Virus genome (UHGV): UHGV-0166778
Origin: a virus
DNA: 24,404 nucleotides
Strand: one strand, 5' to 3'
Under the pieces are notes generated by a model. It made no database searches and was not told the DNA's origin. It worked only from the letters and a program-made list of their open reading frames with translations. The position numbers and the translations under genes are program-made. Positions 2,953 to 24,404 of the stretch are shown here, one piece after another; the first letter of the stretch is position 1; the number at the start of each line of letters is the position of its first letter.

Positions 2953-3527
2953 ACCGGGCCTCCGGTTGTATCGCCGCCTTTCAGGACGCCAGTATGCTGA
3001 TGCGCATCAACCACAATCCCGTTAGAGCTCATCGCTCCGCCGCCCTGGGTAACGCCACCATTGATCACCACTTCGCTGTTAATACGCGTGCGGTCAGCCT
3101 CCAGCACAAACTCACTGGTTTTCAGGGTGATATTGTCAGCGGCCTCAATGACCATTGATTTGATGCCCCTAACATACCAGCGCCCGGTGGCGGGTTCGTA
3201 TTCAAACCAGCCGCCGTCCGGGTATTCCGTCACGTTGCCGTCCTCAGAGCCTGAAGGTGGCGGAAACTGGTTTGAGTAGACCGCAGGCAGGGCAAACGCG
3301 GTTTCCAGATTGCCGCCAAGGCTGAACAGCACAACCTGCTCACCCACAGACGGTTTCCACCAGGTGCGCGATTTGCCCGCGCGCAGTGTCAGCCAGTTAA
3401 TCCAGTTGGTTTCGAGGTCGCCAGTTTTCACCCGACACAGCCAGTTTGCCCTGTCCACTTCGGTGACTACACCTGTGCGGATCAGGTTGGTGATAAGGCG
3501 CATGATTTCGGTTAATTGTGCGTTCAT
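2949..3527 (-). CDS. V: Baseplate spike / tail protein (P2 gpV-like)
   Basis: 192-aa ORF MNAQLTEIMRLITNLIRTGVVTEVD...WWKPSVGEQVVLFSLGG...SSNGIVVDAHQHTG, close to the gpV pattern as recalled. Confidence 0.85.
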   Translation of the reverse strand: MNAQLTEIMRLITNLIRTGVVTEVDRANWLCRVKTGDLETNWINWLTLRAGKSRTWWKPSVGEQVVLFSLGGNLETAFALPAVYSNQFPPPSGSEDGNVTEYPDGGWFEYEPATGRWYVRGIKSMVIEAADNITLKTSEFVLEADRTRINSEVVINGGVTQGGGAMSSNGIVVDAHQHTGVLKGGDTTGGPV

Positions 3528-4990: not shown

Positions 4991-5502
4991 AGTCCAGCTC
5001 CTTTAAGGCACCAGGCCATCTCCCGCGCTCGGCGGTTATCCAGCCCCTGATTAAACACACCTTTTACATACACCCAGCGCGGCAACTGTCGGCACGCATC
5101 CGCCCAGCGCCGCTGATTGAGCAATTTCACCAGCGTGGAGCTGCAGGCATTGCCTGTCCCCACGTTGAAGGCAAATGACACCACCGCGTCATACACTTTC
5201 TGCGGTGGCTGTTGCTTCACACACCTTTCCAGTGACCGCTCCACACGCAGCACGTTGGAGATAAGCCCTTCTGCTGCCTGTCGTTCCGTAATGGTTTTGC
5301 CGGGAATGACGCCCGACGTATTACCAATGCCGTCAGTCCAGACACCCGCGCTGCACTGATACGGCTGCAGACGACAGCCTTCGTAATCGGCAATCAGTTT
5401 CAGTCCCTCCACGGAGGTGTGAAGCTGCTGAAAACCCGGCAGCGTGGCAGCAATAGCCAGCACGGCCCCGACAAGGCAGCGTTTAACGATTGATGGATTC
5501 AT
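4987..5502 (-). CDS. K: Endolysin (phage lysozyme, P2 gpK-like)
   Basis: 171-aa ORF with N-terminal EGLKLIADYEGCRLQPYQC...VWTDGIGNT, a lysozyme-type catalytic region; position after the holin. Confidence 0.85.
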   Translation of the reverse strand: MNPSIVKRCLVGAVLAIAATLPGFQQLHTSVEGLKLIADYEGCRLQPYQCSAGVWTDGIGNTSGVIPGKTITERQAAEGLISNVLRVERSLERCVKQQPPQKVYDAVVSFAFNVGTGNACSSTLVKLLNQRRWADACRQLPRWVYVKGVFNQGLDNRRAREMAWCLKGAGL

Positions 5503-11964: not shown

Positions 11965-11970
11965 AAAAAC

Positions 11971-11998
11971 GGAGTCAGATATTCTGACTCCTTATTTC
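11971..11998. terminator. Bidirectional rho-independent terminator between convergent Q and the TM-TIR gene
   Basis: Stem ggagtcag / ctgactcc with a 5-nt loop, flanked by an A-run on one side and a T-rich tract on the other. Confidence 0.5.
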
Positions 11999-12599
11999 AA
12001 CCAAGAATGGACTTCAATGACAAATTGAGCTTATCAATTAATTTTTCATCCTCATAGTTTACAGACTTGATGTTTTTGAGCATCGCAGGCAATTCAGCAT
12101 CACCAATTATCACAGGAATTATAGGAACATAGTTTTCATCTTTTACCGTAGCTTTACGGAGAAAGCCCTCTACCTCCTTTCTTATATATGACTCCATATC
12201 TTCATTAGACAGAAGCAATATAGCCGCAGCGCTATTGTCTATAGCCTGATTAATTTGCTTTTCAATAATCTGCCCGGGCAATATGTTATTTTCATCAAAC
12301 CATACATCAAAACCTAACTCATTAAGCTTACAAGTTATTTGACGGGCCTTATCTTTTTCTTGTACGGGATACATTAGAAATATTTGCTTTCCTTTTTTAA
12401 CGGCCTTTAGTCTTCTTTCCCTTAATTTCATTAACACAATCAAACTCAGGCCAGAATAGGCAAAAGATAATCCAATAACGGAGATGATAATCTCATCATT
12501 AACTCCTTGAAATAAATATGGGAGCCGTGGAATAAGAGCCATAAGAAACCCAACAACAGCCAATGCAATTGAAATAATATAAAGAGTATTTTTTTTCAT
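11997..12599 (-). CDS. Membrane-anchored TIR-like domain protein (two N-terminal TM helices plus C-terminal TIR-like fold)
   Basis: 200 aa. N-terminal hydrophobic helices (LYIISIALAVVGFLMALIP; IIISVIGLSFAYSGLSLIVLM), then IFLMYPVQEKDKARQITCKLNELGFDVWFDENNILPGQ...AIDNSAAAILLLSNEDMESYIRKEVEGF, which follows the TIR beta-A / alpha-A / beta-C pattern. AT-rich, unlike the flanking phage core. Confidence 0.6.
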   Translation of the reverse strand: MKKNTLYIISIALAVVGFLMALIPRLPYLFQGVNDEIIISVIGLSFAYSGLSLIVLMKLRERRLKAVKKGKQIFLMYPVQEKDKARQITCKLNELGFDVWFDENNILPGQIIEKQINQAIDNSAAAILLLSNEDMESYIRKEVEGFLRKATVKDENYVPIIPVIIGDAELPAMLKNIKSVNYEDEKLIDKLNLSLKSILG

Positions 12600-13016
12600 T
12601 TACACACCCTTAATCCACAAAACAAAGGAAGCAAAAAATAATATGCCGACTAAATTACACCCAATACATAAAACCCAAATTTGACCTTTTGGATTTCCTG
12701 TTCGCCCTTCCCAATCTTGATGAAAAGACATGATCCCCAGTAATACAAAAAGAGAGAAGGCAAGAAAGCTAGTAGTTCCAATGTACTGATTAACCACTTG
12801 GTTAACCGTGGTTACTGTTTGAACAGTTTTAGTCAAATCATATAAATTCAACAATGATGCACCAATTGTCGATAATATCAACTCATTCCCAAAGTAAAAA
12901 TCACTCTTTTGCCAACCAGAGGATCTGGCAAGTTTTTTTACAAAAGCCCCACATAGAATCATCAACAATGGAAAAATTAAAGCAACAACGTATTTATTAC
13001 CAATGACATCAATCAT
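12600..13016 (-). CDS. Small polytopic membrane protein, function unknown; first gene of an operon with the TM-TIR gene
   Basis: 138 aa with about four hydrophobic helices; its stop codon directly abuts the ATG of the TM-TIR gene; AT-rich. Confidence 0.55.
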   Translation of the reverse strand: MIDVIGNKYVVALIFPLLMILCGAFVKKLARSSGWQKSDFYFGNELILSTIGASLLNLYDLTKTVQTVTTVNQVVNQYIGTTSFLAFSLFVLLGIMSFHQDWEGRTGNPKGQIWVLCIGCNLVGILFFASFVLWIKGV

Positions 13017-13206
13017 TAATCATCATTCCTTCAATAAATCGCATCATGCCTTTTTGTTTTTAGCTTCATCCACAACCAGTCACCATCGACATCAATATAT
13101 CACATACTAAATATATAATAATTTTATCGAACTATACAAAGCAACCAAGAGTAAAAATAACATACTCTGCCTTACATTCGAAAGGACATTATCATCCCAA
13201 CGCGCG

Positions 13207-13225
13207 CTCGTATCCCCGCCACGCC
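13207..13225 (-). other. Candidate cos (cohesive end) core
   Basis: Reverse complement reads GGCGTGGCGGGGATACGAG; the first 13 nt match the P2/186 cos overhang as I recall it (GGCG[A/T]GGCGGGGAAAGCA). An isolated GC-rich block in an AT-rich intergenic region, at the map position expected for cos. Confidence 0.3.
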
Positions 13226-13270
13226 TGCCCGCTTTATGTAGTAGTTTTCATGCAGGTGCATGATCTACGC

Positions 13271-13294
13271 AAAAGCCCGCCAGTTCTGGCGGGC
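13271..13294 (-). terminator. Rho-independent terminator downstream of the 13343..14185 gene
   Basis: Stem gcccgcc / ggcgggc with a short loop; on the minus strand it is followed by TTTT. Confidence 0.4.
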
Positions 13295-13342
13295 CTTAGC
13301 AAAAACGATCCTCAAACGATCATGCGATCTCATGCAGCATAG

Positions 13343-14185
13343 TCATGCACGATCATTTGACTCAGCATCTGCTGCACGCTTGCTGCGCGAAGATGCACTT
13401 TTACTACCAATCTTTCGACAGTTCTTTCTATCCCTGGCTTCATTTTCTTTAAATTTGTTATATGTCTCAGTATCAAAAAACGAAATTGTTTCAACCTCAT
13501 CTTTTGGTATGAGCACACGGAAATCTTCGATATTAAGCCGAGACATTCCACTTATCACACCACTATCAAGATAATGTTGGTGATAGTTAGTCGTGATACT
13601 AATCGTTAGATCATCTTTATCCCGATATCCGCTTAACATCGGGAGAAGTTCAAGGTGTTCTGAAAGCCCGTTTTCTAACGCCGGACAAGTAACAAGACCA
13701 ACATAGATTTTGCGAGACGACAGAGTTGCTATGATCGGAAACTGTCTTGCGGACGCTTCCATGAGTAATGATTCGAAAGCGTTATTACCCACAGCTTTAG
13801 CTAAGGCATCCCAGCGACGATCTCCACGTGATGTGCGTAACTTATTTCCAAAACCTGAAATCGCAGCGAGGACAATTGAAATCATAACCCATGCTATCTG
13901 TTTGATTTCATTTATTCTTTGAAGTTTGTCTTTCGATGAAGACAACATGCCGTTAAAACTGTCAGGTGTTAGATTCAAGGCATTAGCCAGCCAACGAAAC
14001 CCTCCGCTGACGTTCAAAATAAAGGTGAAAAAACCGCCAAGGAGAAAAAAAACGATACCCCAGGCAGCCACAAAAAAATAAGCGTCCCAGCCGTTGGAAC
14101 GCTTATATCGGTATCTTGTTGAAAGTGATAGGTTTACATAAATAAAACCACTAACCAAAATCACTGCTAAAAGTAATGTTGCCAT
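13343..14185 (-). CDS. Membrane-anchored protein of unknown function (N-terminal TM helices plus about 170-aa soluble domain)
   Basis: 280 aa with hydrophobic segments (LLLAVILVSGFIYV; YFFVAAWGIVFFLLGGFFTFIL; IAWVMISIVLAAISGF) and a charged Ser/Arg/Lys-rich C-terminus; AT-rich; start overlaps the stop of the upstream small gene (TAATG). Confidence 0.5.
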   Translation of the reverse strand: MATLLLAVILVSGFIYVNLSLSTRYRYKRSNGWDAYFFVAAWGIVFFLLGGFFTFILNVSGGFRWLANALNLTPDSFNGMLSSSKDKLQRINEIKQIAWVMISIVLAAISGFGNKLRTSRGDRRWDALAKAVGNNAFESLLMEASARQFPIIATLSSRKIYVGLVTCPALENGLSEHLELLPMLSGYRDKDDLTISITTNYHQHYLDSGVISGMSRLNIEDFRVLIPKDEVETISFFDTETYNKFKENEARDRKNCRKIGSKSASSRSKRAADAESNDRA

Positions 14186-14400
14186 TATCTGGTTCTATTA
14201 GTTTTCTCTTTTACAGTGCTCGTTTTGATGCCTTCAAGCTTATCCATCTGTGCCTTGATGGCATCCATTGCTCTTTTGTTAGACAAGTCTACGGACACAA
14301 AACCATCTTTACTAAGATTGAGTTTGTCCTGGTTCTCTTTAAGAACCCTTGCCAGACGTTCAACTGGGTTACCCAGGCTAAATGCGGCGATGCTTGACAT
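14185..14400 (-). CDS. Small hydrophilic protein of unknown function, translationally coupled to the downstream membrane protein
   Basis: 71-aa ORF MSSIAAFSLGNPVERLARVLKENQDKLNLSKDGF...; AT-rich cargo region. Confidence 0.45.
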   Translation of the reverse strand: MSSIAAFSLGNPVERLARVLKENQDKLNLSKDGFVSVDLSNKRAMDAIKAQMDKLEGIKTSTVKEKTNRTR

Positions 14401-20996: not shown

Positions 20997-21015
20997 TGTC
21001 AAATGGAGATCACCA

Positions 21016-21648
21016 ATGTTAAACATCAGAATGGGTTCCGATACGGGAGGTAAGGCAGCTATTGGAAGGCTGCTTGAGGCTTATGGATTCACAACTAAGC
21101 AGGCATTAAGCGAGCACCTGAATGTCTCAAAAAGCACTATGGCAAACAGAGTGTTACGTGACAGCTTTCCTGCTGACTGGATAATTCAGTGCGCACTAGA
21201 AACCGGTGTTTCGTTGCTTTGGTTAGCTACAGGACAGGGAAGCATGAAAGGAGGAGCTGAGCCTGAGAAAAGTTCTCATAATGAGAACAAACAAGCAATT
21301 AAACCGTTATCCAAACTCATAACTCCAGCTATTCCTAAAGGAACCCTGGAGAATGGACAACTCAGTATTGATGAAGAGATTTTCCTAGACCACAGCATAT
21401 TACCTGCAGATTATGAAGAATTGATGTTCTTAGAAACCCCTACTAATTGTTATCTCATCGATAAATCAATTAAACAGGTCAGCAATGGATTCTGGCTTAT
21501 CAATATTGATGGAATGATTATTGTTGCAAAAATCATGCGGATTCCCGGCAATAAGATTGTAGTAAATCAAGATGAAGCGTCTTTCGAGTGCTCTACTGAT
21601 GATGTGGAAGTTATTGGGCGTGCAGTCAAAGTAATAAAGAGTATCTAA
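21016..21648 (+). CDS. cI: CI immunity repressor (phage 186 CI family)
   Basis: 210-aa ORF with an N-terminal helix-turn-helix region (LLEAYGFTTKQALSEHLNVSKSTMANRV...CALETGVSLLWLATGQG) resembling 186 CI; followed directly by int. Confidence 0.8.
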   Translation: MLNIRMGSDTGGKAAIGRLLEAYGFTTKQALSEHLNVSKSTMANRVLRDSFPADWIIQCALETGVSLLWLATGQGSMKGGAEPEKSSHNENKQAIKPLSKLITPAIPKGTLENGQLSIDEEIFLDHSILPADYEELMFLETPTNCYLIDKSIKQVSNGFWLINIDGMIIVAKIMRIPGNKIVVNQDEASFECSTDDVEVIGRAVKVIKSI

Positions 21649-21650
21649 AC

Positions 21651-22664
21651 ATGACTGTCAGAAAACAGCCAAACGGTAAATGGTTGTGCGAGTGCTATCC
21701 CCATGGACGCAATGGCAAGCGCGTGCGTAAGCAATTTGCTACGAAAGGCGAAGCCATTGCTTTTGAAAGCTTCACAATGGAAGAAGTGAACAAAAAGCCA
21801 TGGCTGGGGGAAAAGGAAGATCGGCGACACCTATCAGAATTAATTGAGCAGTGGTATTCCCTGTATGGTCAAACACTCGCAGACCCCAAGCGCCTCATGG
21901 CGAAACTTAGAATTATCTGTAATGGTCTAGGCGATCCCATCGCCTCAGAGCTGACAGCCGGTGATTTTACTAAATACCGAGAAGCGCGGCTAAAAGGTGA
22001 AGTGCGAAATGAAGAGGGCACGCTTATGTCGCCCGTTAAGCCCCGCACTGTAAACCTTGAACAGCGCAACCTATCATCTGTTTTTGGCACACTGAAAAAG
22101 TTGGGCCACTGGTCAGCCCCCAATCCGCTTGCCGGGCTGCCAACATTTAAAATTGCTGAGGGTGAACTGGCGTTCCTGACCCCGGAAGAAATTAAACGTC
22201 TGCTGGATGCCTGTGCTGATTCTCAAAGCCCCAGTCTACTTTTAATTGCAAAAATATGCCTGGCCACCGGCGCGCGCTGGAGTGAAGCCGAAAATCTGCA
22301 GGGCCATCAGTTATCGAAATACCGGATCACCTATACCAAGACTAAGGGCAAGAAAAACCGTACCGTGCCGATATCTCAGGATCTGTATGACGAACTCCCT
22401 AAGAACAGAGGGAAGTTATTCACTCCTTGCAGAAAAGCCTTTGAACGAGCAGTAAAGCGAGCTGACATTGAGTTACCAGAGGGCCAATGCACCCACGTTC
22501 TGCGCCATACATTCGCCAGCCATTTTATGATGAATGGTGGTAATATTTTGGTTTTACGAGATATTTTAGGCCACTCTGATATAAAAATGACTATGATTTA
22601 TGCACATTTTTCCCCAGAGCATCTTGAAGATGCAGTAATAAAAAACCCTCTGGCTAATTTATAA
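21651..22664 (+). CDS. int: Tyrosine integrase (P2/186 family)
   Basis: 337-aa ORF with a C-terminal catalytic region (ARWSEAENL...HVLRHTFASHFMMNGGNILVLRDILGHSDIKMTMIYAHF) showing the R...H-x-x-R...Y signature. Confidence 0.9.
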   Translation: MTVRKQPNGKWLCECYPHGRNGKRVRKQFATKGEAIAFESFTMEEVNKKPWLGEKEDRRHLSELIEQWYSLYGQTLADPKRLMAKLRIICNGLGDPIASELTAGDFTKYREARLKGEVRNEEGTLMSPVKPRTVNLEQRNLSSVFGTLKKLGHWSAPNPLAGLPTFKIAEGELAFLTPEEIKRLLDACADSQSPSLLLIAKICLATGARWSEAENLQGHQLSKYRITYTKTKGKKNRTVPISQDLYDELPKNRGKLFTPCRKAFERAVKRADIELPEGQCTHVLRHTFASHFMMNGGNILVLRDILGHSDIKMTMIYAHFSPEHLEDAVIKNPLANL

Positions 22665-22690
22665 TAACTTTACAAATATAGGATTTTGAT

Positions 22691-23476
22691 ATGCTGTCTG
22701 AAATAGAAATCAATGATGAAATTCAGCGAGGCAACATTTTTGATCCATTAACGGTATTAAATGGAACATTTAAAGTTCAATCTGCAAGCATTGATCTCTC
22801 TGTAAAAACAATACATATACCAGACTGTCAAGACAATAAAAAAACACGTAACAACCATATCCTGATGCCAGGGGAAACTGTAATATTAGAGTTAAATGAA
22901 AAATTCCAACTTGCAAAAAATTTAGCTGGTGTAATATTCCCAAGAAACACACTATCAAAAAATGGAATTATCATGACGAATCCAGGGCATATTGACCCTG
23001 GATATAATGGCATAATTTCAATATATCTTGTAAATATGTCAAAAGAACCATTCTCATTGACACAAAATTCTGCAGTAGCCCGAATGTTATTATTTAAAAC
23101 AATAATACCGACTAAAGGTTACCAAGGAAAAATCGTAAATAAATTGGATGATGATCAACTTTCTAGAATGGGAAAGGATTTTGCAGGACTTGATAAACGA
23201 CTTCCGAAAGAAATCAATAAAATCATTGCGAAAAAAACTGGCTTTATAATTGCGATAGCAGCCTTAATGCTAACGTTGATAACCCTAGCAATTCCTTTCT
23301 TATTTCAAATAGTATCCAGTAATGTCAGTAGTACAAAAGATCTTGAATTAACAATAAAAGTTCAACAAAATGAAATAAATAGCCTAAAAAGCACCGTTGA
23401 ATTACTAAAAAATGCTAAATCAAACGAACCAAAGGTTGATGCTAAAGTAAGCACCCCAAAAGCTATACGGGAGTAA
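22691..23476 (+). CDS. dCTP deaminase (Dcd)/dUTPase-fold protein with a C-terminal TM helix and coiled-coil tail
   Basis: 261 aa. The N-terminal ~185 aa show Dcd-family landmarks (LNGTFKVQSASIDLSV; PGETVILELNEKFQL; GIIMTNPGHIDPGYNGIISIYLVN); followed by a TM segment (FIIAIAALMLTLITLAIPFLF) and a Lys/Glu-rich coiled coil. AT-rich; ThyX start codon 2 nt after its stop. Confidence 0.7.
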   Translation: MLSEIEINDEIQRGNIFDPLTVLNGTFKVQSASIDLSVKTIHIPDCQDNKKTRNNHILMPGETVILELNEKFQLAKNLAGVIFPRNTLSKNGIIMTNPGHIDPGYNGIISIYLVNMSKEPFSLTQNSAVARMLLFKTIIPTKGYQGKIVNKLDDDQLSRMGKDFAGLDKRLPKEINKIIAKKTGFIIAIAALMLTLITLAIPFLFQIVSSNVSSTKDLELTIKVQQNEINSLKSTVELLKNAKSNEPKVDAKVSTPKAIRE

Positions 23477-23478
23477 AA

Positions 23479-24246
23479 ATGATAAAAATCTCTGATTTAT
23501 CAGTAAAATGCATATCACACCCTTCATTTGAAAGTAATGTTTTTGATGATTTTTTAAACACATCATCATTGCAATGGGTTCGCAAAGGGCAGGCGACCGA
23601 AGCTGAGCTTCTGGTAGAGGCCGCTGGCAGGCTATGTTATATGTCTTTTGGAGAGGATAAGCAGTCTCCACGGACTACAAGTCAATATATCAACAATTTA
23701 ATTATTCAAGGGCATGAAAGTGTCTTAGAACATTTGAACTGGACCTTTTTAATTACTGGGGTATCTCGTGCATTTACACACCAGCTAGTTCGGCATAGAG
23801 CTGGTTTTTCATATAGCCAGTTATCCCAACAGTATCATGATGAATCCGATGCTGAATTCGTAGCCCCTATAGAAGTAAAAAATGACCCAGAATTGTTTAA
23901 GTCATGGTGCCAACATATTGAAAGTAGTCTGGATTTTTATAAGCAATCCTTGAAAAAAATCCGTGAAAACCAATCGTATGAGAACAAAAAAGAAAAAATG
24001 CGGGCCCTAAGAAGCGCTTCTCGCTCTATATTGCCTAATGCAACCGAGACAAAAATAATCGTCACAGCAAATGCTCGCGCAATTCGACACTTCTTCGAAA
24101 TGAGAGGAGCAATACAGGGTGACTATGAAATGAGAACAGTTTCAGAAAAACTTTACGATATTGTAACTCAAGATGCCCCTGCCTTGTTCCAAGATTTCGA
24201 AAAAGTCAATGGAGGAACGGCGCACGTTAAGATAATAAAACAATAA
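23479..24246 (+). CDS. thyX: Flavin-dependent thymidylate synthase (ThyX family)
   Basis: 255 aa with the ThyX signature region GHESVLEHLNWTFLITGVSRAFTHQLVRHRAGFSYSQLSQQY (RHR-x7-8-S motif) and C-terminal ETKIIVTANARAIRHFFEMR; strong GGGAG ribosome-binding site. Confidence 0.85.
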   Translation: MIKISDLSVKCISHPSFESNVFDDFLNTSSLQWVRKGQATEAELLVEAAGRLCYMSFGEDKQSPRTTSQYINNLIIQGHESVLEHLNWTFLITGVSRAFTHQLVRHRAGFSYSQLSQQYHDESDAEFVAPIEVKNDPELFKSWCQHIESSLDFYKQSLKKIRENQSYENKKEKMRALRSASRSILPNATETKIIVTANARAIRHFFEMRGAIQGDYEMRTVSEKLYDIVTQDAPALFQDFEKVNGGTAHVKIIKQ

Positions 24247-24256
24247 GACAAGATCT

Positions 24257-24281
24257 CGCCAGTTCAACGAACTGGCGTTTT
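24257..24281 (+). terminator. Rho-independent terminator after thyX
   Basis: Stem cgccagtt / aactggcg with loop caacg, followed by tttt. Confidence 0.5.
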
Positions 24282-24363
24282 ACCATTCAATTTTTTTGGC
24301 GGCATTTTGGCGGCAGAGAACTAAAACCCATATAAACCCCTTAACACCACATAAACATAATAC

Positions 24364-24404
24364 CTGTCTCTTATACACATCTGACGCTGCCGACGACTTA
24401 ATAG
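24364..24404. other. Illumina Nextera adapter read-through plus index (non-biological)
   Basis: ctgtctcttatacacatctgacgctgccgacga is the Nextera transposase adapter (Tn5 mosaic end CTGTCTCTTATACACATCT plus the read-2 tail); the final cttaatag is consistent with the reverse complement of an 8-nt i5 index. Confidence 0.85.

Follow-up and report, generated by a model that had tools for sequence, protein, structure and literature searches.

The window, by which we mean the whole 24,404-nt stretch of DNA that was analyzed, is a segment of a P2/Fels-2-like (Peduoviridae) prophage. Its minus strand carries a tail-fiber gene and then baseplate, lysis, and capsid genes, while terminase and portal genes on the plus strand are followed by low-GC cargo, replication gene A, Dam, and cII-like and cox/Rha-like genes. 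Toward the right end lie the cI repressor gene, a P2-family tyrosine integrase gene (int), a gene for a protein with a dCTP deaminase/dUTPase fold (dcd), and thyX (Table 1). The window shares its gene order (capsid, terminase, and portal genes, cargo, replication gene A, cox-like gene, cI, int, att) with P2/Fels-2-type prophages integrated at ssrA, and the DNA of the integrase region is 82 to 92% identical to that of Fels-2, RE2010, and Cartapus. Unlike these prophages, it carries two cargo genes, dcd and thyX, as a cassette between int and the arm of the att site. Overall, the window was most similar to the prophage of strain 1002W03, with 98.6% identity over positions 41-22644.

Table 1. Coordinates of features at the right end of the window, with the flanks and adapter copies seen in other genomes
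Feature	Position	Strand	Details
cI repressor	21016-21648		Upstream of the integrase
P2-family tyrosine integrase (int)	21651-22664	+	Pfam PF24624 and PF00589; annotation in relatives
dCTP deaminase/dUTPase-fold protein	22691-23476	+	Pfam PF22769 DCD (5.9e-15) and PF00692 dUTPase (1e-12)
thyX (FAD-dependent thymidylate synthase)	23479-24246	+	Pfam PF02511 Thy1 (E = 2.6e-48); final gene before the artifact
Hairpin	24257-24281	+	9-bp stem, 3-nt loop, then UUUU; 11 nt past the thyX stop
Final genuine DNA	24283-24363	+	Matches closed genomes as far as 24363 (100% and 99.8% identity)
Tandem direct repeats, TTTTGGCGGCA twice	24294-24304 and 24305-24315		Within the arm that precedes the att core
Tn5 mosaic end (ME), 19 nt	24364-24382	+	CTGTCTCTTATACACATCT; exact match; opens published Nextera trimming strings
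i5-side Nextera adapter segment, 14 nt	24383-24396	+	GACGCTGCCGACGA, reverse complement of TCGTCGGCAGCGTC
i5 sample index, 8 nt	24397-24404	+	CTTAATAG, reverse complement of CTATTAAG (Nextera XT v2 index S518)
Flank 1 past the att core in relatives			Integrase island type "AATATTGATGTACTG"
Flank 2 past the att core in relatives			Integrase island type "CTTTTTAGTTGTTTG"
Flank 3 past the att core in relatives			ypjA autotransporter side "ATCATGATTGGACGG"
Degraded adapter copy in NZ_CP071328.1	3147832-3147866 (L134 151-220)		...GACGCTGCCGACGA-ATTAGACG-GTGTAG...GTCGCCGTATCATTAAG; index ATTAGACG
Degraded adapter copy in NZ_CP067994.1	474715-474749 (L135 152-235)		Index CTCCTTAC, P5 tail, poly-A run; overlaps the annotated acrS CDS

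At its left end, the window (positions 1-60) starts within the tail-fiber gene. Matches to related prophages begin at positions 1-41; the alignment with 1002W03 starts at 41, inside its "phage tail protein" CDS. The left contig end is probably an ordinary break in the variable or repeated tail-fiber region, so the left prophage boundary also lies outside the contig.

At the right end, the ThyX protein carries the RefSeq annotation WP_053891067.1 in both closed genomes that match this region. The hairpin past thyX is modest, with a predicted RNA fold of -13.8 kcal/mol (z = -2.4), and was not called by a scan for consensus terminators, which missed it because its T run is only 4 nt long. It is likely the terminator of the dcd-thyX cassette.

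We compared positions 21000-24404 of the window with 5,426 complete Escherichia coli genomes by Megablast. Over positions 21000-24363, TUM12355 (NZ_CP134376.1) matched with 100% identity and WL297 (NZ_CP128613.1) with 99.8% identity, and both matches stopped at query position 3364, which corresponds to window position 24363. When the last 158 nt of the window were used in a sensitive search, the matches ended at query position 117, again at 24363. The last genomic base is therefore the C at this position, with ...CATAATAC on the left of the junction between 24363 and 24364 and CTGTCTC on its right; the genomic tail ...CATAAACATAATAC runs straight into CTGTCTCTTATACACATCT at the contig end. We also searched the same 5,426 genomes with the 41-mer that follows the junction, in sensitive mode and with E values of up to 10. 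The best partial matches were three imperfect ones of 32 to 35 nt with 91 to 94% identity. We inspected two of them, and both proved to be complete but degraded adapters, with indices other than S518 followed by a P5 tail. Five matches of 19 nt (H61-H65, query positions 1-19) consisted of the ME alone and fell in strains whose names suggest a laboratory or engineered origin (EPI300 and MG-phbCAB).

Positions 24364-24404 consist of exactly three adapter parts of 19, 14, and 8 nt, and the contig terminus is laid out as ...cataaacataatac, CTGTCTCTTATACACATCT, GACGCTGCCGACGA, and CTTAATAG. The ME has 0 mismatches, and it is the sole match to this sequence on either strand of the window when up to 3 mismatches are allowed; the count expected from shuffles of the window is 0.00. 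The reverse complement of the 33-mer at 24364-24396 is TCGTCGGCAGCGTCAGATGTGTATAAGAGACAG. This 33-mer is the read-2 Nextera adapter string supplied to Cutadapt in one study (PMC12675288) and also serves as a trimming string in another (PMC6460022). CTATTAAG is index S518, which is placed directly after the P5 sequence AATGATACGGCGACCACCGAGATCTACAC (PMC7589761, Appendix B). In read-2 read-through of Nextera and Nextera XT libraries, the order is CTGTCTCTTATACACATCT-GACGCTGCCGACGA-reverse complement of the i5 index-GTGTAGATCTCGGTGGTCGCCGTATCATT. The window agrees with this order except that the P5 tail is cut off: the P5 complement GTGTAGATCTCGGTGGTCGCCGTATCATT is absent, and the window stops at the final index base. 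The constant part of 19 plus 14 nt, the index, and the terminal, outward-facing placement are all shared with Nextera read-through, and we found no points against the adapter identity of this sequence. Other adapter and vector pieces (P5, P7, TruSeq, the Nextera read-1 tail, and the start of phiX) were found nowhere else in the window, and nothing pointed to a chimeric join inside the window or to adapter at its start. We conclude that the 41 terminal bases are almost certainly untrimmed Illumina Nextera (Tn5 tagmentation) adapter read-through and hence an artifact.

The original prediction, which was made from the letters of the window, had described the last 41 nt as library adapter rather than genome and had named a Nextera adapter plus an index at these positions. 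Its coordinates and description proved exact, and the closed genomes are identical to the window up to 24363 and then differ from it. It had also pointed to an alignment of the 41 nt with a genuine locus in closed genomes of the same species as the observation that would count against it; there was no full-length or exact match among the 5,426 complete E. coli genomes.

The same adapter is present in other public assemblies. In an exact scan for the 33-mer in one genome per species (GTDB), we found it in at least 120 contigs or stretches of unrelated bacteria and archaea (L004-L123), many of them metagenome-assembled genomes (MAGs), from taxa including Streptomyces, Pedobacter, Collinsella, Flavobacteriaceae, Planctomycetes, and a Poseidoniales archaeon. 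Among the matches listed, 120 of the 128 occurrences faced outward and lay no more than 100 nt from the end of the retrieved locus, with a median of 14 nt between the end of the 33-mer and the locus end. The locus end was the contig end in every case where the lengths of locus and contig permit this check. The 33-mer is followed by one of a small set of recurring 8-mers (ATAGAGAG, CTCCTTAC, TATGCAGT, and others) and then, where sequence remains, by GTGTAGATCTCG. We take these 8-mers to be the reverse complements of Nextera i5 indices. The index of the window, CTTAATAG, follows the 33-mer in two unrelated contigs, L060 (a Streptococcus MAG) and L089, and is itself followed there by GTGTAGATCTC or GTGTAGAT.

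Internal, error-ridden copies of the full-length Nextera read-through also occur within two E. coli chromosomes that RefSeq lists as "complete" (Table 1). These copies are adapter contamination in finished assemblies, and such contamination is widespread, affecting both of these chromosomes in addition to contigs from representative genomes in GTDB. The end of the window resembles the adapter contamination of deposited assemblies of the type handled by NCBI VecScreen or FCS-adaptor, in that it is likewise synthetic, lies at a contig terminus, and masks the true junction. In contrast to the degraded internal copies in E. coli, the copy in the window is error-free and strictly terminal, and trimming the 41 nt therefore suffices.

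The true continuation of this DNA is seen in relatives. In the assembly collection, 276 blocks list the ThyX protein. We fetched ten loci that encode an identical ThyX; they come from nine different assemblies, since L002 and L128 represent one and the same WL297 chromosome. After ...AACATAATAC, all ten loci share the same 46 nt, ATTGATAAATAATAGAATATTTTGATTTTAAAGATATATTATTAGT, with a GC content of 10.9%, versus 38 to 42% on both sides. These 46 nt are followed by a 45-nt core, ATGTAGGAATTTCGGACGCGGGTTCAACTCCCGCCAGCTCCACCA (ATGTAGGAATTTCGG...CCACCA), so that the 91-nt continuation shared across the nine assemblies reads ATTGATAAATAATAG...AGT plus ATGTAGGAATTTCGGACGCGGGTTCAACTCCCGCCAGCTCCACCA. 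The copy of the core in WL297 has the variant end CCAGCCCACCA. The 45-mer is identical to the final 45 nt of the annotated ssrA (tmRNA) gene at the opposite end of the WL297 prophage, and immediately past CCACCA the flanks diverge into three contexts. Given this identity with the 3' end of ssrA and the divergence of the flanks right after the 45-mer, we identify the 45-mer as the att core and the right boundary of the prophage.

Projected onto the window, the core falls at virtual positions 24410-24454, which is 47 to 91 nt past the last genuine base. A direct repeat equal to the 3' end of ssrA, as in P2/Fels-2-type ssrA prophages, is present in all nine related assemblies; it was not found in the window, which is cut 46 nt short of it, the core itself lying outside. 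Judging from the sequences of these relatives rather than from the contig alone, we can say with good confidence that the missing att site would be the 3' end of ssrA, and the isolate behind the window presumably continues as its relatives do. The original prediction had held that the apparent end of the prophage is an assembly artifact and that the att site and the host flank are missing. Both statements stand: phage DNA runs 46 nt further to the att core in relatives, and an ssrA-derived core would occupy the virtual positions given above. Its caution about any att inference at this end was justified insofar as att is absent from the contig, and it can be refined: the 3' end of ssrA can be inferred from relatives, and the loss amounts to only about 91 nt.

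The DNA next to the missing core can also be compared with that of 1002W03, which carries an ssrA prophage without dcd-thyX. In 1002W03, a sequence that has diverged from the region of approximately 24307-24363 and from the AT-rich spacer, but can still be aligned with them, precedes the same core. This alignment indicates that the last genuine bases of the window already lie in the conserved arm beside the att core. The arm contains the tandem TTTTGGCGGCA repeats, and a similar sequence, GTGGCGGCAAAATGGCGACAG, is found at the other prophage end, in the phage arm adjoining the intact ssrA (L133, about positions 5380-5400, minus strand). The TTTTGGCGGCA repeats and GTGGCGGCAAAATGGCGACAG are candidates for arm-type integrase binding sites.

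The contexts past the core lie at L001 9457-10851, at L125 and L127 4142-5371, and at L002 9457-14183. Two of the three open with another tyrosine integrase (Arm-DNA-bind_3, Phage_int_M, and Phage_integrase domains); the third is the ypjA side, which in WL297 comes after the variant core end CCAGCCCACCA. ssrA clearly carries tandem integrated elements and is a multi-use integration site. The prophage of WL297 (L133 and L002; NZ_CP128613.1 1154138-1168498) is a remnant of approximately 14 kb in which the regulatory and replication half is intact and the portal and head-completion genes are present only as fragments, beside ssrA.

How might the adapter have come to form the end of the contig? 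In tagmentation, Tn5 attaches adapters at internal cuts and not at pre-existing DNA ends. By the established chemistry of the method, Tn5 cut between 24363 and 24364 and the resulting fragment was shorter than the read, so that read 2 ran past the insert into the i5-side adapter. It passed in order through the ME, the complement of TCGTCGGCAGCGTC, the complement of index S518, and then P5. With the adapters left untrimmed, the assembler would have extended the contig along such reads as a dead-end tip, and it would have followed this tip because the adapters had not been removed. The true path was likely weak, given the poor Nextera coverage to be expected for 46 nt of approximately 11% GC. 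Furthermore, each genome contains at least two copies of the att core (attL and attR), and this repeat would break the assembly graph just downstream. A coverage dip together with a repeat may thus account for the loss of the true path.

We considered whether the ME could instead belong to a genuine Tn5-derived transposon downstream of thyX, either natural (IS50/Tn5) or engineered (EZ-Tn5), with the contig ending inside it. The 19-nt ME does occur in real chromosomes, as the matches in the EPI300 and MG-phbCAB strains demonstrate. However, these genuine chromosomal matches end after the 19 nt, whereas in the window the ME continues into the i5-side adapter and an Illumina index and not into a transposon body. 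The natural outer and inner ends of IS50 also differ from the synthetic mosaic end, and identical prophages in closed genomes run through 24363/24364 without an insertion. A true Tn5 or EZ-Tn5 insertion would comprise two inverted 19-nt ends, a body, and a 9-bp target duplication; the window has one ME copy with no inverted partner and with adapter and index next to it, and we rejected this candidate. A transposon at this position is vanishingly improbable. We also find it highly improbable that 24363 is a true physical DNA end, whether a linear phage terminus or the prophage boundary, which the adapter merely marks. The contig end is indeed close to the right boundary of the prophage, and phage termini can give rise to pile-ups of read ends. 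However, the related assemblies have 46 nt more phage DNA before the att core, their flanks diverge only past the core, and adapters added by tagmentation mark internal Tn5 cuts. The cos site of P2-type phages adjoins the portal gene, which would presumably place it here near 11965-11997, far from 24363. Because phage DNA continues past this position in relatives, we discarded a physical terminus at 24363.

The adapter could also be real while the break itself resulted from a mixed culture, containing the prophage together with excised circles or empty attB, or with tandem-island variants, and not from low coverage of AT-rich DNA. In favor of this, three downstream contexts are found at ssrA among strains, two of them with another integrase; with ssrA in use as an integration site for several elements, the core occurs at least twice in each genome, and branching of the graph would be expected at that point. 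However, branching caused by heterogeneity at att would begin at the core, 46 nt beyond 24363, and the window contains nothing that bears on population heterogeneity. We regard a mixed culture as unlikely, and it is quite unlikely that the break before the att core reflects heterogeneity at the ssrA hotspot through spontaneous excision or alternative tandem islands. Were such heterogeneity real, the junction at the adapter tip would be biologically unstable and not only poorly covered, and the adapter would still be an artifact. A mixed-population cause leaves the verdict on the 41 nt unchanged.

As untrimmed adapter read-through, the 41-nt end is an ordinary assembly artifact, not a biological feature, and it holds no biological novelty. 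Positions 24364-24404 should be trimmed prior to annotation, boundary calling, and database deposit, and it would be wrong to take the contig end for the end of the prophage. Little is lost, as the boundary can be recovered from relatives, in which the final 45 nt of ssrA form the right att core.

The dcd-thyX cassette that precedes this end (positions 22691-24282) has a GC content of approximately 35 to 42%, versus approximately 55% for the phage core, and it is co-oriented with cI-int. Only 2 of the 5,426 complete E. coli genomes carry it. In a related prophage, another gene, for a 222-aa hypothetical protein, fills the position occupied here by dcd-thyX; the slot between int and the att arm therefore looks like a cargo hotspot. 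Together, the dCTP-deaminase-fold protein and ThyX could provide a route from dCTP to dTMP. PADLOC matched neither protein of the cassette to a defense family, and thus we make no claim of a defense function for it.

A second low-GC cargo block (35 to 43%) adjoins the portal gene at positions 11997-14400 on the minus strand, and the same block is present in 1002W03. It encodes a 200-aa TIR-domain protein (Pfam TIR_2, 3.6e-17) with weak PADLOC matches to the SAVED-TIR, Aga_TIR, and ThsB models. The ORFs of 138, 280, and 71 aa that follow it had no family match in Pfam or PADLOC. This block may be an anti-phage system at a known P2 cargo locus.
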